The position numbers and the translations under genes were made by a program. Positions 4,905 to 62,463 of a DNA stretch of 64,000 nucleotides are shown one piece after another (the first letter of the stretch is position 1; each line of letters opens with the position of its first letter). The notes beneath the pieces were generated by a model that searched no databases, was not told where the DNA came from, and saw nothing but the letters and a program-made list of their open reading frames with translations. Origin of the DNA: Verrucomicrobiota bacterium (GTDB lineage Bacteria > Verrucomicrobiota > Kiritimatiellia > CAIQIC01 > JAGNIJ01); contig JAZDKK010000039.1 of the NCBI GenBank assembly GCA_043803015.1, positions 2,708 to 66,707 of the forward strand, written 5' to 3'.

Positions 4905-5039
4905 GGCGAACCTCCTCGCTTGAATCCGGCGTTCTGCAATTCGCTTGCCTACACCTACCAAGGCGCGCCCACAGCGTCAACTCGCAACTCCCCTGCAACT
5001 CCCCTGCCCGTCCGCGCCCAGACCCCTACCGTCGACCTG

Positions 5040-5815
5040 AAGGAAGTCAATCCCGTCCTCGTCCAGCCACACCTGCCGGGCTTGTCCCGGCGTAGCTCGC
5101 CAGAGCGAAGACGGATCCGGGCGCGGCGGGCCTTCGGGGCGGGGGCGCCCGCCGCGCAAGGGCTGGGTGGCGAACTGGCCGAGCGAAGCGAGGCTCGCCC
5201 GCCGAAGCTTCAGCGAAGGCGGCTCCACGAAGGGCTGGCAACGTGCGAGCAGGCGCGCCTGTCCGCCGTAGCGCGTCAGCGCGAAGGCGGAAGCCGTTGC
5301 CGGCCCGACCACCGGGCTCGGCCCCTTGAGGGGCCGAAGCCCAACGGGGTGGACAAGCGTAGCGCCGAATGGGTGGGCGCGCGCCGGGCGGGCGCAGGAG
5401 GCAGAAGACCGCGTTATGCGACGCAACAGGCTCCGCGTCAGCGGTGGTTGCCTGTTGCGTGTGAGGAGTCTTCGACGAACGAACGCATAACGACGGCTTT
5501 TGGGAACTGCGCGGGGTGGCGGAGGCGTAGACGAAGCCGGTAGCAAGGGACGTGACAAGCGGCGGTCCGACGCTTCGAGGACGGCCGCTTGGCGCGGCCC
5601 TTGCGGGCGCGCGCGTACTGCCGAGCGAACGTAGTGAGCGAGTCCTTCGGGGGCGAAGACCACGGCCCGAACTCTCGTAGAGAGCTCGGGCGGTGGGCGG
5701 AGGGGGTAGGTACGGGCTCAGCCTGGCCGGTAGCACTTCGGGCGCAGCTCGTCCGTCCGCGGCCAGGTGTCGAGTAGAACGCCTGCCCTGCGTAGCTCGT
5801 CAGAGCGAAGCAGGG
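5040..5815. repeat. repeat-dense GC-rich non-coding tract
   Basis: Recurrent units CYTGYCC(G)GCGTAGCKCGYCAGMGCGAAG at about 5081-5110, 5259-5290 and 5782-5812. gagcgaag/cttcgctc-type motifs are also present. A hairpin CGGCCCC-TTGA-GGGGCCG lies at about 5319-5336. Nested inverted repeats CGTTATGCG / CGCATAACG and GCAACAGGC / GCCTGTTGC lie between 5411 and 5492. ORFs in the track here are R/A/P-rich in all frames. Confidence 0.5.
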
Positions 5816-6035
5816 TGAAGTACAGCAGGAACGGCTTGAAGTACTGGCTGTCCGTCAGCACCGTGAACCCGGTCAGGTTGTCCGCCTTGTCGTAATCGTA
5901 CGTCACTGTCGCCTGGTTCGAGTAGTTCGCCCCCGCCAGCCGGTGCTGCTCGTCGTACGTGTACACGATCATCCCCGCCCGCGCCCAGCCCGCCAGCAGC
6001 AACACACTCACCATCGTTAGCGTCAGTCGTTTCAT
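5718..6035 (-). CDS. small secreted protein with one or two YD (RHS-type) repeats; possible orphan RHS fragment
   Basis: ATG 6035 with an AAGGGTG Shine-Dalgarno. The signal peptide is MKRLTLTMVSVLLLAGWARA. YD-repeat-like YTYDEQHRLAGANYSNQATVTYDYDKADNLTG follows. The C-terminal third is encoded by the GC-rich repeat at about 5782-5812, so the true 3' end is uncertain. Confidence 0.45.
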   Translation of the reverse strand: MKRLTLTMVSVLLLAGWARAGMIVYTYDEQHRLAGANYSNQATVTYDYDKADNLTGFTVLTDSQYFKPFLLYFTLLRSDELRRAGVLLDTWPRTDELRPKCYRPG

Positions 6036-6078
6036 TTCAGCACCCTTAGTCACTAATCAAGGCTTGGCCCCCTCCGGC

Positions 6079-6552
6079 CTAGTCACTTGTCAAGGCCTGG
6101 TCCCTCTGTCCACGCAACAGGGATTCAACCAGCTGTTGGTGAGGGAGACTCCTTTGCGGATTGCTAAGAGAGAGTTCGCGGATCCGCCGCGGAGTCCCCC
6201 ATGCGATCGAATACAACACGCCGTCTTTCACACGGCCGCTGTAATCCCCGACGCCGTGTTCAACCGCGTCCTGCAACGAGCCCATCACTTCGTCGAAAGC
6301 CTGCGAGGTCTGCTCCTGCCACTGTGTCGCACTCTCGGTCTTCTTGCGAAGGTCATGGGATCGGCGACACATGCGCGTGCTGCTGGACGCGTGCAACCAT
6401 TCGACAGTGTCAACGACTCCTGCCAGCGGACTGGATCGAACTATGACCACGCATGCATCGAGGGAGGGATCTGCCTCGAATGCAGCGAGAAGTCTTCGTC
6501 TCGCCGGAGAACAAAAGTTGTTCCGGAGGAAGCGGCGTAGGGAATATGTCAT
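6079..6552 (-). CDS. candidate immunity protein for the RHS C-terminal toxin (no recognisable family)
   Basis: 157-aa ORF. Its ATG (6552..6550) overlaps the RHS stop (6551..6549) in an ATGA overlap. It sits in the position typical of cognate immunity genes and looks lower in GC than its surroundings. Confidence 0.5.
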   Translation of the reverse strand: MTYSLRRFLRNNFCSPARRRLLAAFEADPSLDACVVIVRSSPLAGVVDTVEWLHASSSTRMCRRSHDLRKKTESATQWQEQTSQAFDEVMGSLQDAVEHGVGDYSGRVKDGVLYSIAWGTPRRIRELSLSNPQRSLPHQQLVESLLRGQRDQALTSD

Positions 6553-9500
6553 TGGCCGCCTCCACCAATCACATATGAACCGAACCCAAACGCTGTCAGT
6601 CCTCCGCCTGCCTCGATGGCGTAATTCAGCGGTGTGACAACCGTTCCACCTCTGACTGCATAGGCGCCACTGAACGCATGGCTGATGCCTTGTCGGAGAC
6701 TTCCGCTAGCATACGTCTGGGCAATGATCTCTTCAGTTGCGTTGAAGAACGCGCTGTTGTCGTACGCAGCCTGGCCAAGACCTTGGCGGAATGTCGCCAC
6801 AGGACCGCTTCCCCGCGGTGAGAGGAACGCGTGAACAGATTCATGTCGGAGTGCCGCTACTTGCTCTGCCCGTGACAGCCCCGGCTGCAGAAACACCCGG
6901 CCCGCGGGCGTCGTGTACCCAAGCGTGCGTGTTCCGGCCAATGTCGCGTCCGTAGATGGAAGGCGGAGCGGCCTCGTCGCCCTGGAGGCTGGGCCACGAC
7001 CGCCCAGCACCGTTAGCACGGCCGTTTCCATGATGGCGCCATTCACTTGGGCCTGCACGTAGTCTGCCTGCGTCATGGGCACTTTGCCATAACTCATGTC
7101 TGTCCAGTGTTGCTGTTCCGAGGCGTTGACGGGGGCGCGAAGCACGGGACCGTCGTAGTAGCCGCTGTTCCCCGAAGACCCACCCTGCCCCCAAGACGGG
7201 CCGTCATAGTACGAGTCGGCACAGAGGCCGAGGACATCCAGGAAGAACAGCGGATTTGCATTCGCGTAGAGGTAGAGGTTGTTGCCTCCGGCCAACCCGA
7301 TGGGGTCAGAGGAGAGGAACCGTTTGTACTCCGAGGAGTAGTATCGCGCCTTCATGCGGTAGAGGCCCGAGCCCTCGGAATACACCCCATGCCCGCCGAT
7401 GAATGTGTAGACGGTCTGGACAGTGCCGGTATAGCCCCAGGACTCGCCGTTCGGCCCGTAGGCGTATTGCGCGACGAGGTTGGCGTTGGTGTCGGTCAGC
7501 GCCAGGGTGGATCCGAGTTCGTCCGGATGGACGTAGTAGACCGTTCCGTTCGTCTCGATTTGGGCAAGCAACCCGTTGGCGCCCCAAACGTAGTACCGCA
7601 ACGGTGCGCCGTTCGTCGCCACCTCCATCAGGACATTGTGCAGGGCGCTTGCGCGGTCGACGACAAAGTAGCTGGTCGCGCCGTTCGCCACCCGCCTGAT
7701 GCGGTCCCCTGTGCCGTCGTAGGCGAACTGCCGATTGCCAACCGCCGATTGCCAATTCGTCAGGCGGCTGTCGTAGTCCCAGGAGTACTGAACTGCGGAT
7801 GGGGCGAGCGTCAGGTTCCCGTTGGCGTCGCAAGCGTACGCGCTATTTGTGCCAGAACCGGAATCCGGAGCGGCCTTGGCGAAGATGTTCGTCATGCGGT
7901 CAGCGGGATCGTGGGCGCGGGTCTGAACGGTAGGCGTCGAGGGCATGGGCTCAAGCCCTGCCGCGACGTTCTCCAACATCTTGTGGCCCAAGGCATTACG
8001 GGTGATGGTCCGCTCGATCAACGTGGCCGCGCCCTTCGTGTATTCATACCCAACCACACGGCCCGCAGCGTCGGGGGTGTACGTCGCATCCACGCCGCTA
8101 GGATAGTCAATGCCGGTGAGCCGATCAACGTTGTCGTAGGTGTAGACCGTCTCGCGGTTGCCCCAGTCGCGAACCTTCTCGATCCGGTCTGCGGCATCGA
8201 ATACGTATGCCACGTTCAGGCCGCCCGGATACGCGATGTTGGTGCGGTTGCCGGTGAGGTCGTACTGGTAGGAAACCGGGAGCGTAAGACCCGAAACCTG
8301 TGTGGTGGAAGAGAGCAACCGGTTCATGATGTCGTACGCATACGAAACCACGGTGCTCACGGAAGTCACGCAGGTGACGTTGCGGTTGGCATCGTATTGG
8401 TAGCCGACCCTGGAGCTGTCGGGATACAGAAGATTGGTCAGGAGGTTGACCGGGCTGTAGTAGTAGTTCACGGTCTGGTCTTTCGCGTCGATGCGGGACA
8501 GGCAATTGCCTACGGGGTCGTAGGTGTAGCTGGTCACATAACCGAGGGCGTTGGTCTCGGCAACGACGCGGCTCATGCCGTCGTAGCCGAAACTCGTCAT
8601 CTTGCCTTCGCCATTCACGAAGGCCAGGAGATTGCCCAGAGGATCGTACTCGAAGGAATCTACAACGCTGCCGGGCCGCAGAATCGCCGTCCGCCGGCCC
8701 GCGGCGTCGTACTGGTATTCGGTTGCGGCCCCCAGGGCATCAACTACTGCAACGAGTCTGCCAGCGGCGTCGTACTCGTAGTCGGTGTCATTGCCAAGTT
8801 GGTCGGTGGCCTTCACTATGCGATTCAGGGCGTCGTACTGATTGGAGACGACGTTGCCCAAATCGTCTCGCGTGGTCAGCAGGTTCCCGCTCGGATCGTA
8901 GCTGTAGGATGTCTTGCGCCCCAGCGCATCGGTCGTGTTCGTCAGACGGCTGACGGCATCGTAGCGGTTCGTGACAGTACGACCGAGGGGGTCTCTGTCC
9001 GCGACCAACAAGTCGCGGCCGCTGTAGGTATTGCTGACCACCGCCCCGCTGGCGTAGACCGTCGCGGCAAGCTTGTACGCCTTGGTGTAGGTGTTGCTTG
9101 TCAGGTTCCCTTTGCGGTCTCTGACCGTAACCAGGAGCCCGGCTCCGTTGTAGGCATTGCTGATCGAGTATCCCAGGGCATCGGTTTGTTTGAGAAGCAG
9201 ACGCCGCTTGTCGTAGGCGTACGTGCTCATATTGCCGTTGGGGTCGCGTGAGGAAAGCAGGTTGCCAACCGAGTCGCAGGAATTCGAGACGGTCCCCCCA
9301 TCGGTTCGCTGGACCGTGGCGGGGTTCCCGTAGGAGTCGTAGGTGAAGGTTGTCTGGTTTCCCTTTGCGTCGGTGATGACCTGAGGCAGGCCGTCGGCGG
9401 TGTAGGTGGTGCGTGTCGCGTTGCCGAGGGCATCCACAACGTTGGTAAGGTGGTGCTCGCCATCGTATCCACAACCGGTGACGTGCCCCAACGGGTCCTT

Positions 9501-12500
9501 CACAGAAACGACGTGGTACTGGGTGTCATACGTGAACGCCGTCGCGTTGGAAAGAGCGTTGATGAGATTGGTGACGTTGTGCGCCCCGTCGTACTGATAG
9601 ATGGTGGCGTATCCGCGGGCGTCCATGGCGTTCGTGACGTGATTCTGGCCGTCGTAGTATGTGTAGACCCGGTTGCTGTATGCGTCCTGCACACAGGTGC
9701 GCCGCCCGAGCTCGTCGAAACAGTGGATGGTCTGCCCGCCCTCGGGGTCCTGCTCCACATTGCGGACACGCGAGATATAGAACTTCCACTCGTAGCCTGT
9801 CGCCGACACCTGTGAAGTCACGCATCCCAATTCGTCGTACCGGTTGCTGATCGTGACCTGGTTGAGCGGGTCCTTGATCGAGGTGAGCCAGTGGTTGGTG
9901 CCGTAGGTGTAAGTCCACTGGTTTCCTTCGGGATCGGTAAAGCGAGTGAGGTTGGTGTAGGCCCCATAGACGTACGAGACCGAACGCCCAGACGAATCAG
10001 ATACGGACGCTAGGCAACAGTTGGATTTGTAGTTGTAGTCGAACAACAGGCTCCGTCCCCTGCAATCGGTTACCCAGGCCAGGTTGCCGTAGCCGTCGTA
10101 GACGAATTCCATTCGGTTGCTGTCTGCATCCTCCCACCACTTGATCTTGCAGTAGTTCAGGGTCTGAAGAGGACTCTCGTCGGGGCCAAGGTCTGGATCA
10201 CTGAGTGAGTATTGATTGGTTGACGTTGTCAGCACGAGCTTGTCCAGTTTGAAGCCATCTTCCCGCATCCAGACGTTGATTGTGTGGGCACCGGGTTCTT
10301 CGAGTGTGACGACGTTGTCTTGCCCCGACTCCTGGTCCCTCTGCCAATCCCAAGTCCCATCCGACGCGAAATCGACGTACACGAAGTCGACACTTCCATC
10401 TAGTCCTGCGTGACACGAATTCGCGCCGCTGTTCGTCCCGGAGCCCCTGATCCAAAGCCGATGCACCCCCGCCTCGGTACAGAGGATATTGTAGACGAGT
10501 TCCGGAGCCGTCGTCTCGATGCCGGTGTTTATGTTGGCTCCGTTGTTGGGCCCCGCCTCCGAATAGGCTCCTCCGGATGTGTCCGTAGCGGAAGTTAGGA
10601 CATTGCTCCAGTAGTGCTGACTCCTCGGGATCATGCTGTCGTAATGCTCCCCCTCCACGGAAATCAGGTGGTGCCATTGGGCGCCCTGCAATCTGCCCGT
10701 GACGTTGCAGCTCTGGAACTCCATCCGCGTGCCGAACCGTTCCTGCAACTGATAGGTTCCGTTTGTCGGATCCGTGGCCACGAGCTTGGTGGTGACCCCT
10801 GGGGGCGGGTTGTACGAACCGTCCGCGAGCTTGACGTACTCGGTGCTCCGGTTGCCCTGCCGGATCGTGACTGCGTTGTCGGTGAGCTGATCCATCGCCC
10901 ATTTGGTCGCGAGGACCGTTGCCATCCAGCCCTTGATGTTGAGTTCGTTCTTCAGAAGGTCGTTGGCAACGATGGAATGGGCTATGAGAGATGCGGCGTC
11001 CACCGGCTGGCGCGTTCCCATGGCGGGGTCGCCGTGGCTGTGCCGGACGGCTTCGATGTCGTAGTTGTGCGTCCAGCCCCAGCCCAGTGGCCCGCGTCGC
11101 AGGCCGTTACCGCTACTGTAGAGGCGGGTAAAGTCTAATCCTGACGGCTCGCGCGATCCGAGCGAGAGGTCGGTGTGCTCGAAGAGGTAATCGCCCGAGA
11201 ACAGGTCCACGGGCTCGTCGCTCACGTGCAGGTTCTCCGCAGTATCCTGAGAGGAAATGGAGGCCACGATGTTCTGCTGAATGGGATCATAGATGATTTG
11301 GGCGGGCGTCCCGCCGTACCCACCGCTGTAACCGCCGGAGATTATCATGGCGCCCAAGGAACTCGAGTACGCCACGTACCCCAGCCCCGTCCACTCGGCA
11401 AGAGCGATGTTTGCATCCTCCGGCAGGACGACAGTGCACGCCAGATTGGTTACGTACACTGCAATCACAGCCAGCTCGTCAGATGTGTAGTTCTTGAGCT
11501 TATTTGTAACGGCGCTCCAATATGCGCCCGTCACCATGTAGTTTGTCTTCCCGTTGCTGTTGCTCAGCTGGAGGAGTTTCATCGTGGAAGCAGCGGGCTT
11601 GTCCGTGCCCTGCATCTGTTCCAGCATTCCATGCTCAAAGGCGCTCGCCATGCAGACCGAATGCAGGAACCATGCGCTCTGCCCAGACCCATCGCCCGTC
11701 TTCTCACCAATAGCGCTGAAAGCAAGCGGCACATCGATGTAATACCCCTCTTCCTGAGCCATCGCGCCCGCACCGTAGTGGTTGACCCATGCCATGCCAT
11801 GCAGCGCTCCCGCAAGGCGCCGGTACAGGTACTTCTCATGGAACCAAGTGAGAGCCATCACGTTCAGAGCCCCGCCCAGAACCTCCTCTGATGACTGCGA
11901 TCCACCAGCTTCGCGGGCTTTGGTGAGAGCATCGTTCTGCCCGGCGATCATCTCGGGCGAGGTAGATCCGAAGTCTTGAGCGATGACGTACCTGTTTGTG
12001 GCTATGAGCGTCAAATACTTGTACTTGCTGTCCGGTCCATCGGCGGTGGGAATCGACACCGTGAGCTTCACCTGAAAGTAGGTGCCGGTCGTCACTGGAT
12101 TATTTCCCTCTTTGATCAACTGCCCGTCCACCCTCAATTGCGGCCGGTTGTCTGCGCCTGTGTAGAAGATGGAAACCCGCTTACCCGCAATCTCGTAGGC
12201 CTTGAAAGTGTTCGTGAACGAGGAGGGCGGTGGGTGTTCAATAGTGAGCTTAGCGAAGTGAGTATCCGGCAGGGAAGAGCGAGACGTTTGGCTGAGAATC
12301 TGTTGGGCGTAGGGTAGGCTGGTAGGGAGGGTGGTGTATTCCTGCGCCACGATCTTGCGCCCGCTGACGATCTGCTCGATACTGGCGTTCGGATAGGTCG
12401 AACGGAAGCAGGCCACGAGGTTAGTGCTGTATTGGGCGAGGTCTGAGCGCACATTGGCCTCGTTGACGTTTGCCACTTCGTTCGGATTCGCTTGGCTCGC

Positions 12501-13265
12501 ACCCGACATGGCATCGCTCAGAAAGGTCGCACGGTTGTACCCCATCGTTGCGCTCAGCGAGGCAACGCCCAGTCCCGCGATGTTGGTGTACGGTTTGAAA
12601 CCGGGATCCAAGACCCGATTCACACCATCGACAGTTGCCTCCACCCAGAAGTGCGTCATGCGGATGTTGCCCTGGTAGTTGCTTGCTGGCACATAGAAGG
12701 TGTTGAGTATGCCGAGCACGTGGTCTTGGCTCACATCGAGAAGGTTGGCCAGAAACGATGTGCTGTATTGAACTTCTCCTTCAACATAGTGTGCGTCCGT
12801 GCTTGCATCGGCAGCCCTGAGCAGCGCGATCAGGAGGGAGCACTGGTCCAGGTCGTTCCCTCGTTTGGCCAGCAACGTGGCGGTCGCGCCGTTGCGGGAG
12901 CCGTGATAGATGGAGTAGTCGATGCAGTTGCGGACGTATTCGAAAATGCGCGCGGGATCGTTCTGGAGCCCGTAAGCAAGGGCCTTGATGTTAGGTGTGA
13001 CCTCCGTCTCGCTGGTGCTAGGCCCGCCAAGGAGCATCATTCCTTCCTGAGGTGCATTGGAACTCACGTACTGCTGCCACTGGTCTGGTGTGCCGGGGCG
13101 AGGCTGGGCCAGAGCCCAGCCAGCAGGGACTTCGCTGGCCGGGGCATACGCGTGTGACATCACGAGCAGTATCAGCGCCCAAGATGCGCAGCGTTCGACT
13201 GCCCCAGCTTGTCCCCAGCGATGTCCTCCCGGCGGCGCTGTGAGTTCTATTCGCGAACCTGCCAT
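6549..13265 (-). CDS. RHS-repeat polymorphic toxin with signal peptide, N-terminal transglutaminase-like domain, YD-repeat shell with an inserted beta-sandwich domain, RHS core and an HExxH C-terminal tip
   Basis: 2238 aa.
- Cys-His-Asp transglutaminase-like core: DQCSLLIALLRA, HFWVEA, VLDP.
- Dozens of YD repeats of the YxYDxxGNL type.
- Core end: YYSSEYKRFLSSDPIGLAGGNNLYLYANANPLFFLDVLGLC.
- A 223-aa tail containing HESVH. Confidence 0.9.
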   Translation of the reverse strand: MAGSRIELTAPPGGHRWGQAGAVERCASWALILLVMSHAYAPASEVPAGWALAQPRPGTPDQWQQYVSSNAPQEGMMLLGGPSTSETEVTPNIKALAYGLQNDPARIFEYVRNCIDYSIYHGSRNGATATLLAKRGNDLDQCSLLIALLRAADASTDAHYVEGEVQYSTSFLANLLDVSQDHVLGILNTFYVPASNYQGNIRMTHFWVEATVDGVNRVLDPGFKPYTNIAGLGVASLSATMGYNRATFLSDAMSGASQANPNEVANVNEANVRSDLAQYSTNLVACFRSTYPNASIEQIVSGRKIVAQEYTTLPTSLPYAQQILSQTSRSSLPDTHFAKLTIEHPPPSSFTNTFKAYEIAGKRVSIFYTGADNRPQLRVDGQLIKEGNNPVTTGTYFQVKLTVSIPTADGPDSKYKYLTLIATNRYVIAQDFGSTSPEMIAGQNDALTKAREAGGSQSSEEVLGGALNVMALTWFHEKYLYRRLAGALHGMAWVNHYGAGAMAQEEGYYIDVPLAFSAIGEKTGDGSGQSAWFLHSVCMASAFEHGMLEQMQGTDKPAASTMKLLQLSNSNGKTNYMVTGAYWSAVTNKLKNYTSDELAVIAVYVTNLACTVVLPEDANIALAEWTGLGYVAYSSSLGAMIISGGYSGGYGGTPAQIIYDPIQQNIVASISSQDTAENLHVSDEPVDLFSGDYLFEHTDLSLGSREPSGLDFTRLYSSGNGLRRGPLGWGWTHNYDIEAVRHSHGDPAMGTRQPVDAASLIAHSIVANDLLKNELNIKGWMATVLATKWAMDQLTDNAVTIRQGNRSTEYVKLADGSYNPPPGVTTKLVATDPTNGTYQLQERFGTRMEFQSCNVTGRLQGAQWHHLISVEGEHYDSMIPRSQHYWSNVLTSATDTSGGAYSEAGPNNGANINTGIETTAPELVYNILCTEAGVHRLWIRGSGTNSGANSCHAGLDGSVDFVYVDFASDGTWDWQRDQESGQDNVVTLEEPGAHTINVWMREDGFKLDKLVLTTSTNQYSLSDPDLGPDESPLQTLNYCKIKWWEDADSNRMEFVYDGYGNLAWVTDCRGRSLLFDYNYKSNCCLASVSDSSGRSVSYVYGAYTNLTRFTDPEGNQWTYTYGTNHWLTSIKDPLNQVTISNRYDELGCVTSQVSATGYEWKFYISRVRNVEQDPEGGQTIHCFDELGRRTCVQDAYSNRVYTYYDGQNHVTNAMDARGYATIYQYDGAHNVTNLINALSNATAFTYDTQYHVVSVKDPLGHVTGCGYDGEHHLTNVVDALGNATRTTYTADGLPQVITDAKGNQTTFTYDSYGNPATVQRTDGGTVSNSCDSVGNLLSSRDPNGNMSTYAYDKRRLLLKQTDALGYSISNAYNGAGLLVTVRDRKGNLTSNTYTKAYKLAATVYASGAVVSNTYSGRDLLVADRDPLGRTVTNRYDAVSRLTNTTDALGRKTSYSYDPSGNLLTTRDDLGNVVSNQYDALNRIVKATDQLGNDTDYEYDAAGRLVAVVDALGAATEYQYDAAGRRTAILRPGSVVDSFEYDPLGNLLAFVNGEGKMTSFGYDGMSRVVAETNALGYVTSYTYDPVGNCLSRIDAKDQTVNYYYSPVNLLTNLLYPDSSRVGYQYDANRNVTCVTSVSTVVSYAYDIMNRLLSSTTQVSGLTLPVSYQYDLTGNRTNIAYPGGLNVAYVFDAADRIEKVRDWGNRETVYTYDNVDRLTGIDYPSGVDATYTPDAAGRVVGYEYTKGAATLIERTITRNALGHKMLENVAAGLEPMPSTPTVQTRAHDPADRMTNIFAKAAPDSGSGTNSAYACDANGNLTLAPSAVQYSWDYDSRLTNWQSAVGNRQFAYDGTGDRIRRVANGATSYFVVDRASALHNVLMEVATNGAPLRYYVWGANGLLAQIETNGTVYYVHPDELGSTLALTDTNANLVAQYAYGPNGESWGYTGTVQTVYTFIGGHGVYSEGSGLYRMKARYYSSEYKRFLSSDPIGLAGGNNLYLYANANPLFFLDVLGLCADSYYDGPSWGQGGSSGNSGYYDGPVLRAPVNASEQQHWTDMSYGKVPMTQADYVQAQVNGAIMETAVLTVLGGRGPASRATRPLRLPSTDATLAGTRTLGYTTPAGRVFLQPGLSRAEQVAALRHESVHAFLSPRGSGPVATFRQGLGQAAYDNSAFFNATEEIIAQTYASGSLRQGISHAFSGAYAVRGGTVVTPLNYAIEAGGGLTAFGFGSYVIGGGGQ

Positions 13266-13266
13266 T

Positions 13267-16200
13267 CTACTGCCCCTTGATTGAGACGTCGTCCACGCAC
13301 ACCTCGCCTGCTGAACCGCTGCTCAAGCGCACGCCGTGCAGAGATCCGCATCCTGAATAGCGGAAACCGAGGCCGGTTAGGGGCGGTCCCCCATCAACAG
13401 ACACCGCCCAAGTCTTGCCTGTGTAGTTGAGTATCACTTGCAGCTGAACCCATCGGTTGGGAAGCAGCGAGTTTGTGACGGCTTTCCATGAACCACCCCC
13501 GCTGCCGTCGTACGCCATGATGCCTTGGTCGGGATCGTAGCTGATCACGCCACTCGCATTCGTCGGAATGCTACTCGTCGCGGGAGGGAAGACACTCGCA
13601 TCGGTCAAGTACAGGTAGATCGTGTTCGTCACGACAGCATTCGTCCCGTACAGACCGTGCTGCGCAGACGAGCCCCAGCCGGAGAGGCAAACAGCTTGCG
13701 CGCCCTCGTGGACTGTGTTGGACTCGACAACCACGTTGGCTGAGGAGCACGTCCAATGGCCTTGACCGTCCAAACCCCCGCCCCAGAAGCCTTCGTTTGT
13801 TTCGAATCCCGTGGAGTACGGCAGAGGACTCTCCCAGACAGCGGGGTCTGTTCCATCGAGTACTTCTTGGCCATCGCTCCGCTCATCGCCGTCCGTATCG
13901 GTGTTCGTGGGATTGGCGCCATACTGAAACTCTTGGAGATTCAACAGCCCGTCCCCGTCCTTGTCTTGGAGCGCGTCGTACATCGTGTAGACCGCGTTGC
14001 TGCTGAGGGCGGTGGAGTACAGCCGGACGTCATCCAACTTGCCCTGCCAGTGGTAGTCGAACGACGGATCGTTACCCCAGCCGATGCGGACCTCCGCCTG
14101 CGTGGCAGCGACGAAACTGCCGGACTGCACCGCTACCTGTGCTCCGTCCACGTAGAGGCGAGCATTGGTCCCGTCGTACGTCAGCGCCAAGTACCGCCAG
14201 ACGTTCGTCATGGTGACTGTGGCGTAGGGGTAAGCGTAGCCGCCGCACGTGCCCAACAGCCCTGCGGGACCTGGCACGTCCTTGTCGTACCCGAGCCAGA
14301 ACCCCGGATAGTTGTACCCGCCGCACACGTACATGTCCGCGATCAGCGTCGGGTAATACGTCGGAAACCCGCTCTTGAGATACGCCCACCCGCTGGCGGT
14401 GAACTGCTGTCCCGTAATCATGGGCGGGTTCTGCGGGACTCTCACATAGTCGTTGGTCCCATCTAGTTCCAGCGCGTTGCCCAGCTTGCCAGTGACCCAC
14501 ACGTTCGTTGCCATATTCACGAGCTGGCCGTCATACGAGGAGGACGCCGCGTTATCAGCGTTCGTGCCGCTCGTTTCATCGAACTTCCACCAGCCGACGC
14601 GTGCCGCGGAAACCCCGGAGGACGGGTTGAGCCCGTACTGGATCTCCCACCAGTCCGGCATGCCGTCCTGGTCGCTGTCCAGGTCCGTCAGCGTGATGTT
14701 GATATTGCTGGTGCTGTTGACGAGATAGACGGGGTTGTTGGTGTAGGTACCTTGGGCCTCAGTCGCGTCATTGCTCTGGTTGCCGTTGGAGTCCCGATAG
14801 GCATCCACGTTGTACAGCCTCAGGTTCGGCACATTCGAGATGACATAGGCCCCTGGACTTGCCGTCTGCGCCTGGTAATGGCGGGACAGCCCGTGCTGGT
14901 AGAGAGAGGCAATCTCCTGCGCGCCCAGCAGGCGGGTAAAGATGCGCGTCTCGTCTTGGCGCCCGTAGAACGGCCAGATCCCCCCGGGCGCGCGCTTACC
15001 CAGCCATAGCTCGGCCGACGTGTCTGTTGTTGCGTGCGACCCATTTGTTTCTGCGGTGCCTTCCAGGACCCCGTTGACGTAGATCCGGCTCCGCATGAAG
15101 TTGGTCCCAACCTCGAACGTCCCGCAAAGGAAATACCATACCCCCGTGGTCATCAGTGTCGTGCTCAGAGCCTGCGCCCGGTTGGGCCAGGTCGCCATAA
15201 GCTCTGTCCCAGCCAGGTTCTGTGACTGCTGCCACAGCGCCCAGCCTGTGTAGGGATACGGTGTCTGGTACTTGCCGATGAAGAGGGATTCGATGTTGAG
15301 CTTCTCCAGCTTGACCCAGGTACATGCCGTCAGGCACGTTATGCCACCCACGACGACGTCCAGTACATCGCCCGTGCCGACCCTGATGTAGTCGTTGCTG
15401 AAGTAGTACGCCCCGCCAAGAACACCCGTGTTCGTGTACGTCGCCCCGAAAAGCCTTCCGGTATACCCGTTGCCGCTCATGTCCACGATGTTTGTGGGCT
15501 CGTCGATATTGAAGTCATAGTGAACTGCCAGCGAGTTAGTCGGCGGCTGGATGTTGGCTGTCACCCAAACCGTGCCCGTCTGCCTGCCGCCGTAACCGAC
15601 GTCCCCAGAAATCGCAACAGGATAGGAGTTCGAGTCGTCGGGGTCGGTCCCGGCAGCCAGTTCCGAGTAGTCCGTGAAGCCGTCGCCGTCCGCGTCCGGG
15701 TCTACCAGCAGGATGTCGATACCGCTGGCTTGGGCTGTGAGGTAGAGCGGGCTGCCCGTGTACACCCCGCACGGCTCCCAGCGCTCTCTCACGCCGTTGG
15801 TGTTGGCGTCCGCCCACGCGAAGATCGTGTACCGCTTGAGGGTTGACAGGTTGGTGAGCGTGTACGAGCCGGGAGATGGCAAGTTGGTTACTCCCACGAT
15901 GTAGAAGTTGACCCCAAGCTCGTAAAGATTCGTGACGTCGGTCAAACTCAACGCCCGGTCGTAGACCATGCCCTCATCGAGCCGCCCGATCCAGAAGGAG
16001 TTGGTTGACCAGTTGTGGAGGGCACCCATGATCACCTGCTTCCAGCCCGTGTTGACCGATCCCCCGCCGGTGCCGGAACCCAGAAACCCGCCATCGAGGT
16101 AGAAGGTTCCCGATGTCTGGACGCCGTCTACCACCAGCGCCACATGGTGCCAGGTACCGTGTTCCAGCGAGAACCCGCTGCTCTGCTGCTGCACGCCTGG

Positions 16201-19044
16201 GTCGCTAGGCCCCCCCGCGCTCAGGGCGTAACTGTAGAACACGTAGGTATTACTGACATAGTATGTGCCGATCAAATAGCGCCGGTCGAACGAGAACAGA
16301 TTGCGGGTGTTGGAGAAGTTCTTAGGATCACCTGAGTTAAACCACAGAGCCACTGTGTAACTGCTGTTGGTCGTTGGGTTCCTGCTGACCCGGATGTGAT
16401 CGTTCGTCCCGTCGAACTGGTACCAGCCGCCTGGCCCGTTGGTGACGTAGGTTGCCCCCCACATTACAGTCCCGCTGTTGGTGTGGCCCGAGAGGTCCGT
16501 AACGTTAGTGCCCTCGTTGTCGGCGAAGCTGTAGTACATCACCAAGCCGTTCGTAGGCGGCAGGGCTTCGGCCTTGATGTAGATCGTTCCTGTCAGCGTG
16601 CTCAGGTTCGAGATGGTTCCCGAGATGCTGGTCAGGAAGGAGTTCGTCAGGAGTGGGTTGGACCCGTTGCTGACTTCCAGCGCATCCGAGTACCCATCGC
16701 CATCCGTGTCGTTGGTCTTAGGGTTGGTGCCGTAGGTATTGACCTCGTCCCCGTCCCAGAGCGTGTCCCCGTCCGTGTCGTTGGTTTGCCAGTTAGAGAG
16801 GTCGGTCAGGTTGGTGTAGAGCCCGTTCCCATCCGTGTCCTCCAAGAAATCCCAGAGCCCGTCCCCGTCGCTGTCATTGGTGGAGGGGTAGTGGAATGAG
16901 ATGTCCACGACCGAGTTGGATTCCTTCACGTGGTTCGTGGCCGTGGTGAAGTGGTAGAGGCCCAGCGCATCTGCGTTCGCGGAGCCGGCGTTTACAGCCC
17001 CGGAGGTCTGAAGCAAGTAGTTGCTGCCTTGGGAGCCTACGGCAAACGGGCTGTTCGTCAGCACGAGCGTGTTGGTCCCCGCCCAGCCCGCCGTACAGTT
17101 GTAGGTCCCGTTGAAATCGAAGAGCGCCCTCACTTCGCAGTTCGAGCTGAACGTGTTCGTCACCGAGGCAAACACGGTATCTCGCACAGCCAATTGCGAT
17201 ACGCTACCTGTGGCGCACAGGGCCCAGTTGGTCATCCGGTCGAACGTGCAGGCTTGGACCAGGACTGCGTTCGCCTCAGCCCGGATGCCCTCCGGCGTGT
17301 CCCGAATCAGGCAGTTGAACACCGTGGCCGTCTCGGAGCCCTGGTTCACCTCGATGGCCCGGTCGCAGAACGAAAGCTGGGCGTCCTGCACGCGCTGTCC
17401 GCCGGCACTTGAGGAGAACCGAATGCCTGTTTGAGCGTACCGGATCCTCAGCCCTTTCACCGTGTTGTTGGTTGGAGATTCGAAGATCAGGGCGGCCCAG
17501 TACTTGTTGGAAACCGGGTTGGCGGAGTAAATGGTCTCGCCCGCGCCGTTCGTGTCGCCGGCGGTCGTGAACAGCGCCGGGCTCAGGGCGTGGGATTTCG
17601 TCTCGATCCGGGCGCCGTTCTGGAACTTGATACTCGCCGAGTTCGTGAGCTTCACAAAGCAGCCCGGCTCGATGGTCAGGATGGCGTTCGGGCCGTCGAA
17701 CACCAGCGGGTTCTTAATGAAGTACGTATTGGCCGTCCTGAACGTCACCTGGAGCGTGTTCGTGCCCGAATAGTCCACGTAATCCACGACATAGCGCTGC
17801 GGGGAGCGGGGAACGTAGACGGACCGCGAATTCACGCGAATTGACCCGCCTTCGCCGGGGGCTTTGGCGAGGCGCGGCGCGAAAGGAAGCGGCCTTTCTT
17901 CTCTTCCATTTCGCGTCGTTCGTGTATTTCGTGGGCTCCTCTTCCTTGCAATCCTTTGCGCCTCTTCGCGGCCATTCTTGCCTTCCGCGAAAAGATACGA
18001 GGCTTCCTTCATCAGGGCTCCCGCGAGGACTTCCTCCGAGAGGTACGTCCTCCCTTCCACCGAGAGCACCCGCATGGCCACCGGTTGCCCCGCGCCGCTC
18101 CCGCCCAGGGTCAGGCTGGCTTCATCTTCCGCGTATGCCTGGCACCGCTGCCAGTTGTGAATCCTCCGGCGGGTTCCGGGTTCCTGGGAGAACACCTGCA
18201 ACGGCGCCGGGCTCGGGTCGTCAGCTTTGATATCGCCCTCACGCTCGGTGTCCGCGCCAGAGAGATCGAAGTCCACCAGCTCCGTCAGGATACACAGGAC
18301 ACTTTCGTTGTCGTCCAACCCGTAGACCGAGGGCGAGGGCAGGCCGCCGAACAGCACAATGTCCTGCTCCAGGCCCCACGGATGGACGCGGTAGACGATG
18401 TCGGCATCTGCGCCGTCGAAAGCGCTTGGGTAGAACACGCCTTCGTCGAAGGGTTGGGCCTTGGAGTCCTTCACTTGGGCGAACACGAAGCTCTTCCCGG
18501 TGGTCTCCTCATAGTAGCTCAGGCCCGCCACGGCGCAGTTGGCGAGTTTCGTTCCGTCACCCGAGGTCTCGACCACGGTTTCCAGGTTGGCGTTGGCGGC
18601 GAAGCGGTACTGGACGGGCAGGTTGCTGAAGGTGACCACGCCGTCTGCGGCAACTTCGGGTTTTATAGCGGAAGGCTGCCACTGGCCCGCGTCGTCCCGA
18701 TAGTTCAAGCCGCTCCCCAGTTCCGTGTAGCCAGGCGAGATGATCTCGGACTGAACGCTGCCGTCGCTGTACGTTGTATAGCGTACCTGCTCGATCTTCC
18801 GGCTGAATTCCGAGCAGGACTCAGGCGCTTCGGTCCACTGCGTGACCGAGGAGACGGGAGCAGGTGGTGGGCCGGGCGGGGCGTTGGTCGAGGCGATCTC
18901 CGTCAGGACGGAGTCGCCGAGCAAGGTGTTCGTAGACAGAGCGTCGGGCTGATCGAGGTCGGGCAACTGAGCAAAGGAAACGCTGCAAACAACGAGCCCG
19001 ATCAGGTTGATCAAACCCAAGAGACTTCCGCTCCCCACTCTCAC
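13267..19044 (-). CDS. giant secreted multi-domain protein with a parallel beta-helix region, thrombospondin-type-3-like Ca-binding repeats and at least four LamG/ConA-like lectin domains
   Basis: The open frame runs to 19098, but there is no ATG there. The likely start is GTG 19044, behind a GGAGG Shine-Dalgarno, giving the signal peptide (M)RVGSGSLLGLINLIGLVVCSVSFA. DxDxDG repeats are present (DTDGDGYSD, DPDADGDGFTD, DSDQDGMPDWWE). LamG-like blocks are present (e.g. LDGTNDYVRVPQNP...WRYLALTYDGTNARLYVDG...GKLDDVRLY). The stop lies 1 nt before the RHS ATG. Confidence 0.85.
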   Translation of the reverse strand: MRVGSGSLLGLINLIGLVVCSVSFAQLPDLDQPDALSTNTLLGDSVLTEIASTNAPPGPPPAPVSSVTQWTEAPESCSEFSRKIEQVRYTTYSDGSVQSEIISPGYTELGSGLNYRDDAGQWQPSAIKPEVAADGVVTFSNLPVQYRFAANANLETVVETSGDGTKLANCAVAGLSYYEETTGKSFVFAQVKDSKAQPFDEGVFYPSAFDGADADIVYRVHPWGLEQDIVLFGGLPSPSVYGLDDNESVLCILTELVDFDLSGADTEREGDIKADDPSPAPLQVFSQEPGTRRRIHNWQRCQAYAEDEASLTLGGSGAGQPVAMRVLSVEGRTYLSEEVLAGALMKEASYLFAEGKNGREEAQRIARKRSPRNTRTTRNGREERPLPFAPRLAKAPGEGGSIRVNSRSVYVPRSPQRYVVDYVDYSGTNTLQVTFRTANTYFIKNPLVFDGPNAILTIEPGCFVKLTNSASIKFQNGARIETKSHALSPALFTTAGDTNGAGETIYSANPVSNKYWAALIFESPTNNTVKGLRIRYAQTGIRFSSSAGGQRVQDAQLSFCDRAIEVNQGSETATVFNCLIRDTPEGIRAEANAVLVQACTFDRMTNWALCATGSVSQLAVRDTVFASVTNTFSSNCEVRALFDFNGTYNCTAGWAGTNTLVLTNSPFAVGSQGSNYLLQTSGAVNAGSANADALGLYHFTTATNHVKESNSVVDISFHYPSTNDSDGDGLWDFLEDTDGNGLYTNLTDLSNWQTNDTDGDTLWDGDEVNTYGTNPKTNDTDGDGYSDALEVSNGSNPLLTNSFLTSISGTISNLSTLTGTIYIKAEALPPTNGLVMYYSFADNEGTNVTDLSGHTNSGTVMWGATYVTNGPGGWYQFDGTNDHIRVSRNPTTNSSYTVALWFNSGDPKNFSNTRNLFSFDRRYLIGTYYVSNTYVFYSYALSAGGPSDPGVQQQSSGFSLEHGTWHHVALVVDGVQTSGTFYLDGGFLGSGTGGGSVNTGWKQVIMGALHNWSTNSFWIGRLDEGMVYDRALSLTDVTNLYELGVNFYIVGVTNLPSPGSYTLTNLSTLKRYTIFAWADANTNGVRERWEPCGVYTGSPLYLTAQASGIDILLVDPDADGDGFTDYSELAAGTDPDDSNSYPVAISGDVGYGGRQTGTVWVTANIQPPTNSLAVHYDFNIDEPTNIVDMSGNGYTGRLFGATYTNTGVLGGAYYFSNDYIRVGTGDVLDVVVGGITCLTACTWVKLEKLNIESLFIGKYQTPYPYTGWALWQQSQNLAGTELMATWPNRAQALSTTLMTTGVWYFLCGTFEVGTNFMRSRIYVNGVLEGTAETNGSHATTDTSAELWLGKRAPGGIWPFYGRQDETRIFTRLLGAQEIASLYQHGLSRHYQAQTASPGAYVISNVPNLRLYNVDAYRDSNGNQSNDATEAQGTYTNNPVYLVNSTSNINITLTDLDSDQDGMPDWWEIQYGLNPSSGVSAARVGWWKFDETSGTNADNAASSSYDGQLVNMATNVWVTGKLGNALELDGTNDYVRVPQNPPMITGQQFTASGWAYLKSGFPTYYPTLIADMYVCGGYNYPGFWLGYDKDVPGPAGLLGTCGGYAYPYATVTMTNVWRYLALTYDGTNARLYVDGAQVAVQSGSFVAATQAEVRIGWGNDPSFDYHWQGKLDDVRLYSTALSSNAVYTMYDALQDKDGDGLLNLQEFQYGANPTNTDTDGDERSDGQEVLDGTDPAVWESPLPYSTGFETNEGFWGGGLDGQGHWTCSSANVVVESNTVHEGAQAVCLSGWGSSAQHGLYGTNAVVTNTIYLYLTDASVFPPATSSIPTNASGVISYDPDQGIMAYDGSGGGSWKAVTNSLLPNRWVQLQVILNYTGKTWAVSVDGGPPLTGLGFRYSGCGSLHGVRLSSGSAGEVCVDDVSIKGQ

Positions 19045-19329
19045 GCCCACCCTCCCTGATTCCAAGCGTGGACACAACCCCTGCGCCGTTCGGTGCACAG
19101 CCTAAGGGGGCATGCGCCGAATGCAAGCAGTTTCCTTTCCCCATCTCATTGCCCTCCCCGGCCCGGGCTCTTCGGCCTGTTGGCCCGCCTGGCTGAAGTG
19201 CGGGTTTCTGGCTGTCTTCCTTCGCCAGCAGGCTGAAGCCTGAACGCCAGCGGGCCGCGGATTCCCTTTTTTTCTGCCCGCCGAACCGCGTCTGTGATAG
19301 CCTGTTCCCGGCTTTGGAGGCGCGAACAC

Positions 19330-19608: not shown

Positions 19609-19640
19609 TACATACGAAAGAAGTCTTTTGACAATTCACA

Positions 19641-61114: not shown

Positions 61115-61552
61115 ATGAAGTTGAGGCTCATCATGGATGGGACCAGGTTCACCGTCTTTGAGATGGGAGATTCAGATGAGTTGGGCAAATTCATGCAAGA
61201 CCTCGATCAGCACCGCGGTAAGGAGTCCCTGCGGCTCGCAAGGCGGATCGATCAGTTGGCGAATTTGGGGGCGAGCAGGAAGCATGACGAGTTCAACGTA
61301 ATAGGTGAGGGACTTTTCGAGGCCAAGACCAGATACGGCGCACGTGTCGCATTCTTCTATGATGCTGGACATTTGGTGATCTGCGCGAATACCTATCTCA
61401 AGCAAACGGATCGCGCGCCAAAGAATTTCATTGCTACTGCACGTGCACGAAAACGGCAGTATGAGCAAGCAAAAGCCCGGCGCGAGGAGGTAGAAATCAT
61501 TCTCGACGATAATCAGGTAATGCCCAGGAGGCTCCCGACATGGTCAAGGTAA
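61115..61552 (+). CDS. RelE/ParE-superfamily toxin of the Gp49/HigB-like (DUF891) type
   Basis: 145 aa. The block GEGLFEAKTRYGARVAFFYDAGHLVICANTYLKQTDRAPKNFIATA matches the Gp49-like pattern (fe.r...g..R+.ff.d....v+l..f.KKt.ktP). It lies in low-GC DNA. Confidence 0.7.
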   Translation: MKLRLIMDGTRFTVFEMGDSDELGKFMQDLDQHRGKESLRLARRIDQLANLGASRKHDEFNVIGEGLFEAKTRYGARVAFFYDAGHLVICANTYLKQTDRAPKNFIATARARKRQYEQAKARREEVEIILDDNQVMPRRLPTWSR

Positions 61553-61977
61553 TCCACGATAACTCCAAGTTCGATTACGAGGGCGCGTTTGAAAAGGCGC
61601 GCGAGCAACTTGGCTACTGGCAGGAGGACATCCTCCTGACTGTTGCACGTCGGATCATTGATGAAATGGATGATCAGGATGTGAGCCGGGCCGAACTGGC
61701 GCGCCGGATGGACGTTTCTCCCGCGTACATTACGAAGATACTCAGGGGCCACGCCAACCTGTCGCTTGAGAGTTTGGCATCTGTTGCCTTCTCTTTGAAC
61801 AAGCGATGGGAATGTGTGATGACTGATTTCGGCGAGCAGTATAATTCGTACTGCGTCGAATCGAAACACACGCTGGCTCTTGGATCAAGAAACGAAAACG
61901 CGGCTGCACAAGCCGCGTTTTCGGTATCCACGCCCATGATGCAGCCACAGGCAAAAGTACTGGCAGAGGCCGCGTAG
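61540..61977 (+). CDS. XRE-family helix-turn-helix antitoxin (HigA-like) with an extended C-terminal tail
   Basis: It overlaps the toxin gene by 13 nt. An AGGAGG Shine-Dalgarno lies upstream. The HTH is SRAELARRMDVSPAYITKILRGHANLSLESL. About 55 extra C-terminal residues follow. Confidence 0.7.
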   Translation: MVKVIHDNSKFDYEGAFEKAREQLGYWQEDILLTVARRIIDEMDDQDVSRAELARRMDVSPAYITKILRGHANLSLESLASVAFSLNKRWECVMTDFGEQYNSYCVESKHTLALGSRNENAAAQAAFSVSTPMMQPQAKVLAEAA

Positions 61978-61989: not shown

Positions 61990-62463
61990 ATGATCGTTCC
62001 TTTTGAAATTGAGCATTTTGAAATCCTTCAACTGAACATTGAAGCGAACGAAGTATTCGATAAGACCAGCACCGAGCGAACCGCTCTGCTCAAGGCACAG
62101 ATGTCTGTGAGTTGCCATGAGAAAGACCCTCGCCGGTGGCGGCTCACGCTGGCCCTAGAAATAGACGCGGAAAAACCGGAAGAAAAGAAGTTGTTGCCCT
62201 ATCGCATGAGGATCACGGGGCGTGCCTATTTCCTGTTCAAAGAAGACGCTACGAAAGAAGCCGCAGAACACACGTTGCGTCTTAATGGGGCATCGATTCT
62301 TTACGGGCTCCTGCGTGCGCAAGTCTTCAACATAACCGCTTTGTCGATCAACGAGCCGTATCTGCTGGACACGATGAATTTCGTGCAAGCAGAGAAGCAG
62401 CACCTCAAAGAACCGCCCGCAAAGGAGCAGGCCCAAGCCGCAGAGGCAAAGACCGGAGTCTAG
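61990..62463 (+). CDS. SecB-like chaperone (third component of a toxin-antitoxin-chaperone module)
   Basis: 157 aa, with AGGAG 9-10 nt upstream. Its topology is SecB-like: FEILQLNIEAN..., ...RITGRAYFLF...AEHTLRLNGASILYGLLRAQVFNIT...EPYLLDTMNF. The call is made by eye only. Confidence 0.6.
   Translation: MIVPFEIEHFEILQLNIEANEVFDKTSTERTALLKAQMSVSCHEKDPRRWRLTLALEIDAEKPEEKKLLPYRMRITGRAYFLFKEDATKEAAEHTLRLNGASILYGLLRAQVFNITALSINEPYLLDTMNFVQAEKQHLKEPPAKEQAQAAEAKTGV

Follow-up and report, generated by a model that had tools for sequence, protein, structure and literature searches.

A predicted Sec-type RHS polymorphic toxin locus of the transglutaminase class in a Verrucomicrobiota bacterium, with a giant lectin/beta-helix protein and a small secreted YD-pair protein

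Introduction

In Tc toxins, an RHS cocoon holds a toxin that is released by autoproteolysis, and a very large partner protein encoded next to it provides the targeting. The cocoon itself consists of two polypeptides with joined beta-sheets (e.g. structures 4o9x and 6h6e), so that a YD element acting in trans would not be without precedent. Export through Sec and a type II secretion system (T2SS) has been assigned to a computationally predicted class of proteins that combine a signal peptide, a (mostly inactive) transglutaminase domain and RHS repeats, described by Zhang, de Souza, Anantharaman, Iyer and Aravind (Zhang et al. 2012, Biol Direct 7:18; PMC3482391); in the passages of that paper considered here, the transglutaminase domain is stated to lie always between the signal peptide and the RHS repeats, and surface anchoring is already proposed for the class. 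No experimental study of any member of this class was found in the literature searched. More recently, bacterial teneurin-like proteins have been described as Sec-dependent YD-shell toxins with immunity genes and variable surface-display adhesion domains, and with no obvious delivery machinery (Raoelijaona et al. 2026, Nat Commun 17:2753; PMC13018210); how YD-shell toxins are delivered without a type VI secretion system (T6SS) or a Tc partner is stated there to be an open question. Here, we analyse a stretch of 64,000 nucleotides of DNA from a Verrucomicrobiota bacterium (Kiritimatiellia; GenBank assembly GCA_043803015.1, contig JAZDKK010000039.1, positions 2,708 to 66,707), hereafter the window, which contains a block of four genes built around an RHS protein of the transglutaminase class and preceded by a giant protein of lectin-type and beta-helix modules.

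Our reading of the block as a whole, to which we assign a probability of roughly 0.6, is that its four genes form an operon that moves horizontally and encodes an RHS polymorphic toxin independent of the T6SS, equipped with a giant accessory protein and a YD adaptor. Much firmer than the whole of the mechanism proposed below is the narrower claim that the block encodes a Sec-type RHS toxin of the transglutaminase class.

Results

Organization of the four-gene block

The four genes all lie on the minus strand, in the order giant, RHS, candidate immunity open reading frame (ORF) and small YD-pair ORF (Table 1). An earlier note on this DNA, made from the letters alone, had described a two-gene module of giant and RHS protein, which has to be enlarged accordingly. 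At the junction of these two genes the minus strand has the sequence ...atc aag ggg cag TAG a ATG gca..., and the single nucleotide between stop and start codon, as well as the AAGGGG Shine-Dalgarno sequence inside the 3' end of the giant gene (6–11 nt 5' of the RHS ATG), can be read there directly, as that note had claimed. The ATG of the immunity ORF overlaps the RHS stop codon (ATGA), and the small YD ORF starts approximately 45 nt past the immunity ORF, at an ATG at position 6034. The giant probably starts at a GTG preceded by a GGGAGGG Shine-Dalgarno sequence, which yields a product of 1925 aa, the length estimated before; this product is identical to protein P0018 of the representative protein library used here.

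Approximately 44 ORFs across the window were scanned against Pfam and NCBIfam. Outside the block they are housekeeping or unrelated genes, and no PAAR, VgrG, LXG, TpsA/TpsB, Tc-A, T2SS or T6SS family was detected in any of them, which bears out the earlier failure to recognize a PAAR, VgrG, LXG, two-partner secretion (TPS) or Tc-A marker by eye.

Table 1. Position of the four genes, their domains and the block edge in the window
Feature	Position	Strand	Evidence
Giant accessory protein	13267..19044 (ORF open to 19098)	-	ORF, start codon, Shine-Dalgarno, Pfam
GND, N-terminal all-beta domain	17689..18912	-	homologue clusters and AF2 model
Probable right-handed beta-helix	16879..17688	-	NosD E 0.004; L083 similarity
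Three LamG (Laminin_G_3) domains and TSP3-like motifs	13975..16563	-	Pfam
ConA-like C-terminal domain	13270..13851	-	similarity to 568-aa partner in L007
Giant/RHS junction	13263..13276	-	AAGGGG, TAG 13269..13267, 1 nt, ATG 13265..13263
RHS polymorphic toxin, 2238 aa	6549..13265	-	Pfam, NCBIfam, PDB shell match
Transglutaminase-like region, aa ~90-683 (TGase core aa 105-213)	11217..12998	-	Transglut_core PF01841 E 4e-6
DUF6531 plug (aa 684-740) and GH115_C-like beta-sandwich insert (aa 867-1021)	10203..11216	-	Pfam
YD-repeat shell and RHS-associated core, aa ~1040-2014	7224..10148	-	RHS_repeat, TIGR01643, TIGR03696
Variable C-terminal toxin domain, aa 2015-2238, with HESVH	6552..7223	-	no family match; low GC3
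Candidate immunity gene, 157 aa	6079..6552	-	position, ATGA overlap with RHS stop
Small secreted YD-pair protein, 105 aa	5718..6034	-	RHS_repeat and YD-pair HMM
GC-rich spacer, left block edge	4962..5815	.	25-nt repeat x3

The RHS protein belongs to the transglutaminase class

The RHS protein displays a hydrophobic core at aa 26–37, consistent with a Sec signal peptide of its own, followed by Transglut_core, DUF6531, a GH115_C-like domain, RHS_repeat and Rhs_assc_core (Pfam/NCBIfam). The YD repeats are recognized by PF05593 RHS_repeat in 10 stretches (E 6e-74) and by TIGR01643 (E 2e-62), the shell matches the solved T6SS Rhs cocoon 7q97 (phmmer, E 2e-55), and the RHS-associated core scores with TIGR03696 (E 1.8e-14, aa 1943–2014) and carries the motif DPIGLAGG...DVLGL. 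An AlphaFold2 (AF2) model of the N-terminal 703 aa was poor, with a predicted local distance difference test (pLDDT) score of 52, and a fold search with it returned only the transglutaminase core, matching the transglutaminase-like protease 3isr. A look-up of the RHS protein by its exact sequence gave no database record.

At least 463 relatives of the N-terminal region of about 600 aa were found among one-genome-per-species contigs. They span Verrucomicrobiota, Kiritimatiellia, Planctomycetota, Deltaproteobacteria, Burkholderia, Paraburkholderia, Variovorax, Massilia, Bradyrhizobium, Caulobacter and Melainabacteria, the nearest being metagenome-assembled genomes (MAGs) of Verrucomicrobiota, Kiritimatiellia and Deltaproteobacteria. 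Among 82 related loci, 67 keep the DUF6531 and GH115_C-like region and 65 also encode the RHS shell. The transglutaminase fold of the window protein is situated between signal peptide and RHS repeats, the arrangement characteristic of the class of Zhang et al. (2012). The loss of at least one of the catalytic Cys, His and Asp residues, the other trait of that class, is not seen in the window protein, which has a C142-H205-D220 triad; in the 82 relatives, the corresponding positions read A-H-D in 41, A-R-D in 12 and C-H-D in only three. By homology, the membership of the window protein in this class holds.

A giant protein of lectin-type modules precedes the RHS gene

The giant protein also begins with a hydrophobic stretch (aa 8–19) consistent with a Sec signal peptide, and the signal peptides that the earlier note had attributed to both proteins are therefore both predicted here. 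From the N- to the C-terminus it comprises the signal peptide (aa 1–25), an N-terminal domain that we term GND for giant N-terminal domain (aa ~45–452), the probable beta-helix (aa ~453–722), a region of TSP3 motifs with three LamG domains, and a concanavalin A-like (ConA-like) C-terminus. Pfam returns three Laminin_G_3 matches (E 1e-56) besides TSP3_bac (E 6e-16), the LamG copies being located at aa 828–1042, 1176–1382 and 1471–1690, in alternation with TSP3-like DxDxDG motifs and beta-sandwich spacers. The beta-helix is suggested by a faint NosD match (Table 1). This region ends in the conserved motif LGLYHFTT.TN.VKE.NSVVDI.FHY and shares 35% identity over aa 606–880 (E 5e-28) with the giant of locus L083, one of the related loci described below.

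The GND has no Pfam or NCBIfam match. Its homologues in the representative library, which group into 1600 clusters when E<=1e-3 is accepted and into 581 when E<=1e-10 is required, sit mostly at the N-terminus of proteins of 1000–2800 aa. The AF2 model of the domain is all-beta, with a pLDDT of 77 overall and of 85–94 over aa 60–350.

The modules that follow the GND are distributed unevenly. Of the LamG array of the window giant, only the last domain, together with TSP3 motifs, is common to its closest relatives, among them the giants of L083 and L163 and P0019, P0023, P0024, P0027 and P0036; when the 152 closest giants are considered, no more than about 25 have LamG modules in common with it. 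The ConA-like C-terminus, for which Laminin_G_3 scores E 0.26, shares 40% identity (E 1e-34) with the C-terminus of a 568-aa protein upstream of the RHS gene in L007. A word-indexed search with this C-terminal domain gave no matches, and a metagenome scan with it was dominated by the TSP3 repeat pattern, the informative results being L083 and, weakly, L105 only.

Many GND giants (P0016, P0019, P0023, P0024, P0027, P0047, P0053, P0087, P0116 and others) end in one of two conserved tails, '...V(I/L)IT.P.NG..(I/L)P*' or '...L.V(F/Y)TPLK*'; the window giant lacks the first. That tail resembles the opening strand of an immunoglobulin-type (Ig-type) domain truncated by a stop codon, and could act as a docking strand or a sorting signal.

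Giant and RHS genes are paired in other genomes

Homologues of the GND were found in genomic context at L083, L163 and L164-166, none of which had been found through the RHS protein, and the giant-RHS order noticed earlier in the window recurs at each. L083 encodes a 1593-aa giant with GND, beta-helix, TSP3 and LamG modules, and a 1996-aa transglutaminase-RHS protein whose gene starts 19 nt later; in L163 a giant is followed by a signal-peptide RHS protein in the same gene order, with assembly frameshifts; and in L164-166 a signal-peptide RHS gene begins 100 nt after that of a 1005-aa giant. Counting the window, an RHS gene lies directly downstream in 4/4 GND-giant contexts versus 3/79 controls (Fisher p = 2e-5), the controls being loci with generic TSP3 proteins reused from the metagenome scan with the giant C-terminal domain. 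Identity of these loci with the window is only 25–35%, and their GC content ranges from 49 to 66%.

Tight spacing is also seen in related loci of the PVC (Planctomycetota-Verrucomicrobiota-Chlamydiota) group and of Deltaproteobacteria, where the distances between the partner stop codon and the RHS ATG are -4, 1, 2, 9, 15, 16, 19, 21, 22, 22, 38, 44, 44 and 84 nt. Since each RHS protein in these loci has its own signal peptide, the arrangement represents two proteins and not a single interrupted gene. In L103, TSP3 motifs, a LamG-like region and an RHS shell occupy a single reading frame of 3554 aa. Reciprocal synteny, tight coupling and this fusion show that the pairing is not random, and the association of giant and RHS genes is beyond chance.

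The upstream partners of transglutaminase-RHS proteins are mosaics that carry TSP3 in almost all cases, together with LamG, BNR/sialidase-like, Ig-like, beta-helix or other modules, and a GND/LamG giant takes this place only in the window and in L083. The earlier idea of a lectin-rich partner thus stands insofar as partners carry LamG, BNR, Ig, beta-helix and TSP3 modules; the LamG array, on which it had been built, is not the conserved element, and what recurs are the TSP3 repeats and the YD pair described below.

These counts bear on the possibility that the giant acts independently, as an adhesin or a glycan-binding protein of the cell surface that shares the operon and the mobile island with the toxin and has no role in its action. 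Large TSP3/LamG/beta-helix proteins are abundant in PVC-type genomes (such modules occur in 61/80 of the loci fetched by the TSP3 pattern), the LamG array is not conserved among the partners of transglutaminase-RHS proteins, and the N-terminal type of the RHS protein varies among giant-linked loci. We nevertheless consider an independent adhesin unlikely, given that the RHS gene follows in all four giant contexts at such low identity, that stop and start codons are tightly coupled, that a fusion in cis exists in L103, and that some giants carry YD-pair-like tails.

In L164 (L164:1-9637; also in L165 and L166), the pair, whose giant is P0016, lies just 3' of genes for a terminase large subunit, a portal-like protein and two DNA methylases. 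The presence of these phage-type genes suggests carriage by a prophage or another mobile element in that lineage. It also raises the question of whether the pair might be a structural module of a prophage or mobile element, with a tailspike-like recognition protein and an RHS-like fibre, to which a beta-helix of the tailspike type and the low GC content of the block would be suited. However, the 64-kb window contains no phage genes, both proteins have predicted Sec signal peptides, the RHS protein combines its core with a typical polymorphic C-terminal toxin, and a scan of 2.9 million viral contigs found no relative of the GND, a result that speaks against an origin from phages. A phage structural module is, in our opinion, hardly credible.

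A YD-repeat pair is the most widely conserved companion

The small YD protein consists of a signal peptide ending in ARA|G, with a hydrophobic stretch at aa 4–15 that is consistent with Sec export, followed by one YD-repeat pair (RHS_repeat, E 1.5e-4). A hidden Markov model (HMM) of the YD pair was built from the window ORF and the C-termini of several upstream partners, and was applied with a strict threshold of independent E-value (i-E) < 1e-4; the window protein scores i-E 2.5e-17. At this threshold, a YD pair is encoded directly upstream of the RHS gene in 33 of the 55 RHS loci with enough upstream sequence and only downstream in two further loci; approximately eight more were identified by eye. 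It was absent from all 12 transglutaminase proteins without an RHS shell (0/12) and from 914 kb of control loci. Moreover, when all flank ORFs were clustered, the YD-pair gene was the only broadly conserved neighbour. A secreted YD pair of about 40 residues is the most widely conserved companion of transglutaminase-RHS genes, and no earlier description of it turned up in the limited literature searched.

The form of the element depends on the lineage. In Proteobacteria it is a free protein, the mature part beginning right after the signal peptide (...A|GSVxYTYDALGRL...YxYDAAGNRTS); in PVC and deltaproteobacterial loci it constitutes the extreme C-terminus of the TSP3 partner; and in Terrimicrobiaceae the RHS protein carries it as an in-frame N-terminal fusion. 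A YD-pair-like tail also closes some of the giants (L083, P0074 and P0084). Partner, RHS, immunity and YD protein follow one another in the window just as in L007, and the YD proteins of the two loci have a tail motif in common.

In Terrimicrobiaceae/Chthoniobacter loci (L012:9269-10050, L020:1003-1830, L035:777-1800, L023, L029 and L046), a single open frame runs into the RHS gene. Its product starts with a signal peptide and the YD pair, continues with a domain of some 150 aa and a segment that is hydrophobic and rich in Arg, and then shows another stretch resembling a signal peptide. The matching protein of L013 and L021 stops at a stop codon of its own. The frame is either a genuine fusion or an instance of read-through that recurs between loci.

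Type II secretion genes adjoin some family members

The genes gspE, gspF and gspG were found within 10 kb of a pair of small YD and transglutaminase-RHS genes, in varying arrangements, in seven beta- and gammaproteobacterial loci (L040, e.g. L040:5136-8540, L042, L043, L047, L048, L049 and L050). This neighbourhood may reflect an export route that the family prefers or that is dedicated to it. For the window, Sec followed by a T2SS encoded elsewhere would be the likeliest and most economical route, and on this reading the absence of a secretion marker in the window does not imply a new one. The earlier description of the export of such proteins as uncharacterized must be modified in this light: the class was described in 2012 with Sec/T2SS export (in the passages considered of PMC3482391), and T2SS genes stand beside seven of its members.

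Adjacency to the T2SS also gives some weight to a second alternative, in which the giant, the YD protein or both would be periplasmic or secretion chaperones, or outer-membrane anchoring factors, for T2SS-dependent release of the cocoon. The YD pair is tiny and follows directly on its signal peptide, and the translational coupling of giant and RHS genes suggests matched amounts of the two proteins. A multi-lectin protein of 1925 aa is an improbable chaperone, however, and the BNR, LamG, Ig and beta-helix modules of the partners are typical of extracellular binding or glycan-active proteins, so that we judge an export-helper role to be rather improbable.

Toxin domain and candidate immunity gene

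The C-terminal toxin domain (224 aa) has no Pfam, NCBIfam or PDB match apart from a faint similarity to DUF6782 (E 0.19). The 157-aa ORF that follows is a candidate immunity gene, as suggested by the usual position of immunity genes and by its overlap with the RHS gene.

Composition and edges of the block

The GC content per kb is 0.57–0.64 in the block and mostly 0.64–0.70 in the flanks, which puts figures to the difference noticed earlier by eye. The GC content at third codon positions (GC3) is likewise distinct: against a mean of 0.881 +/- 0.033 for 31 flank genes, it reaches 0.80 in the giant and 0.75 in the RHS gene, and falls to 0.64, the lowest value in the block, in the part encoding the toxin domain, matched by 0.65 in the immunity ORF. 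From this minimum we infer that the toxin and immunity end was the part exchanged last. The closest locus by gene order, L007:7000-17285 from a Kiritimatiellia MAG, also has a block of lower GC content (0.43–0.56) than its flanks (0.58–0.65), which fits the transfer of a cassette between PVC genomes. Furthermore, the genes flanking the window block did not recur at the other loci in a flank comparison. These features point to horizontal transfer of the cassette.

The two edges of the block differ. On the left, the repeat-dense tract reported earlier is indeed a spacer at the edge, GC-rich and 750 nt long, but its repeats amount to only three copies of a 25-nt repeat and some short ones. The copies (5086-5110, 5262-5286 and 5786-5810; minus-strand core CTTCGCTCTGRCGAGCTACGC) represent three matches versus 0.01 expected and are confined to the spacer 3' of the block, the third supplying the final codons of the small YD ORF; a REP-like element is one possible explanation of the repeat, and a scar of recombination at the edge of the island is another. 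On the right, the supposed divergent promoter region proved to be an ordinary divergent intergenic gap of about 250 nt, in which a promoter scan found no sigma-70-like match. Rfam, tRNA and promoter scans of the block returned nothing relevant.

Other features of the window

At 77-700, the window encodes an AbiEi-type antitoxin/transcriptional regulator (AbiEi_4, AbiEi_3), whose AbiEii partner, if any, would lie beyond the window. Divergent from the giant, at 19294-25108, genes for PqqD-like, DUF362, B12-binding radical SAM, HPr-kinase-C-like and NTP_transf_5 proteins form what looks like a cluster for peptide maturation, of the type that produces ribosomally synthesized and post-translationally modified peptides (RiPP), unrelated to the RHS block. 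The NfeD1b, NfeD and flotillin (FloA) genes at 28072-32309 constitute an ordinary membrane-microdomain operon, also unrelated to the block. A second islet of low GC content (0.52) at 61100-62500 comprises three small ORFs that share one direction (61115..61552; 61540..61977, whose product has an HTH-like motif; and 61990..62463), a layout that resembles a toxin-antitoxin module, perhaps with a chaperone.

Discussion

The arrangement described here suggests the following mechanism. The giant, the RHS protein and the YD protein would be exported by Sec, after which a T2SS encoded elsewhere would probably take them to or across the outer membrane. The parts of the RHS protein, i.e. plug, YD shell, RHS core and variable C-terminal toxin, would form a cocoon that encapsulates the toxin. 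The giant would be an accessory dedicated to the toxin, with translational coupling keeping the synthesis of both in step, and its glycan-binding-type modules (GND, beta-helix, TSP3, LamG and ConA-like) could retain the cocoon on the surface of the producer, bind glycans of target cells, or both; this role in display or targeting is suggested by the nature of its modules. The YD-pair protein would be a family-wide adaptor that joins the cocoon to interchangeable partners, most likely by adding beta-hairpins to the RHS shell, or by being bound by the transglutaminase-like domain, which would serve as a peptide-binding module.

Several observations weigh against this reading. The GND family comprises about 1600 representative clusters, of which only four independent contexts are known, and the N-terminal type of the RHS protein differs among these, being of the transglutaminase type only in the window and in L083. 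The GND model found no confident match in the PDB; the best hits (E 6e-3, TM-score <=0.25) were to beta-supersandwich domains of glycoside hydrolase (GH) type, a faint likeness that is compatible with carbohydrate binding and offers no proof of it. Where its relatives end in a YD pair or a tail motif, the window giant has the ConA-like domain, of which L007 provides the only other example. The gene for the small YD protein, the last of the operon, has a near-host GC3 of 0.84 and might be a remnant of another locus. T2SS adjacency was found in only seven of about 64 family loci, and the 64-kb window contains no T2SS genes. Finally, at the toxin end, that the toxin domain may be a metallopeptidase is a guess from the single HExxH motif HESVH, and no homologue was found for the immunity ORF, nor any match in Pfam, NCBIfam or the PDB, which makes the candidate immunity assignment the least certain of all.

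As regards the question of how YD-shell toxins can be delivered without a T6SS or Tc partner, the locus and its relatives offer recurring candidate components: lectin/beta-helix giants, the YD-pair protein and, in some lineages, T2SS neighbours. The association with RHS proteins is the first functional context for the GND, and the tiny YD-pair protein is conserved from Burkholderia, Variovorax and Bradyrhizobium to Verrucomicrobiota. A broader proposal, which we put forward as tentative and would ourselves rather doubt, is that Sec/T2SS RHS toxins of many phyla share a hitherto undescribed accessory layer centred on a YD-hairpin pair of about 40 residues that docks the cocoon, through beta-sheet augmentation or the transglutaminase-like domain, to interchangeable glycan-binding targeting partners such as the window giant. 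If this were true, the accessory layer would represent a means of T6SS-independent toxin delivery comparable to that of TcA with TcB-C, made of different parts. Since several carriers are cultured and genetically tractable, the delivery hypothesis is directly testable; cultured carriers include Variovorax paradoxus ISL-81 (JAGGNW010000015, L042), Paraburkholderia fungorum (L048) and Bradyrhizobium manausense (L034).

Comparison with known systems

Among the described systems, the class of Zhang et al. (2012) shares with the window protein the signal peptide, the transglutaminase-like domain, the RHS repeats and the variable C-terminal toxin, as far as the passages considered of that paper (PMC3482391) describe it. 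The consensus of the class lacks the catalytic Cys (A-H-D or A-R-D, as in 53/82 relatives), whereas the window protein keeps C-H-D. The same passages do not mention upstream TSP3/lectin partners, GND giants, a YD-pair mini-protein or adjacency to the T2SS.

T6SS Rhs effectors (RhsA of P. protegens, 7q97; Tse5; Tse15) follow the same logic of plug, shell, core and toxin, and provide the best shell and core matches to the window protein. Nevertheless, none of their distinctive traits (PAAR, VgrG, clade domain, Eag/DUF1795 chaperone or T6SS genes) was detected in the giant, the RHS protein or the ~44 window ORFs, and a cleavable Sec signal peptide is incompatible with loading onto a spike in the cytoplasm. 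Likewise, neither the haemagglutination activity domain of TpsA nor a TpsB/CdiB transporter, the traits of TPS and contact-dependent inhibition (CDI) systems, was detected in the window by Pfam and NCBIfam.

Tc toxins resemble the block in their adjacent genes, their very large partner and their RHS cocoon, and the RHS core of the window protein matches TccC and YenC in the PDB. This likeness would accommodate a giant that is an analogue of the A component and forms a translocation channel for a B-C-like cocoon. However, no TcA (VRP1, TcdA/TcdB pore), SpvB or TcB beta-propeller family was found in the giant, the RHS protein or their neighbours; the window proteins have predicted Sec signal peptides, the RHS protein has a plug of its own, and the giant is a lectin/beta-helix mosaic predicted to be all-beta and to lack a helical pore-forming shell, whereas the Tc partner is a channel-former. 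We regard a Tc-like channel as very improbable.

Gram-positive toxins of the WapA type share the Sec signal peptide, the RHS shell, the polymorphic C-terminal toxin and independence from the T6SS, and have an immunity gene where the window has a candidate one (PMC12704120). They differ in being anchored by cell-wall-binding domains in cis, while the window protein has a transglutaminase-like N-terminus, separate accessory proteins and most likely a diderm host. The bacterial teneurin-like proteins also carry their adhesion domains in cis, in contrast to the window, where modules of the adhesion type reside on a separate, translationally coupled protein (PMC13018210). Their superfold includes FN-plug, NHL and TIP elements, none of which Pfam detected in the window RHS protein, and the matches of the latter to PDB entries 9pt5 and 9ifo cover only residues 1380–1592 of the shell. 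In summary, the core of the locus has close counterparts in described toxins, and its RHS-associated giants, its YD-pair element and the pattern of T2SS adjacency in its family appear to be new.

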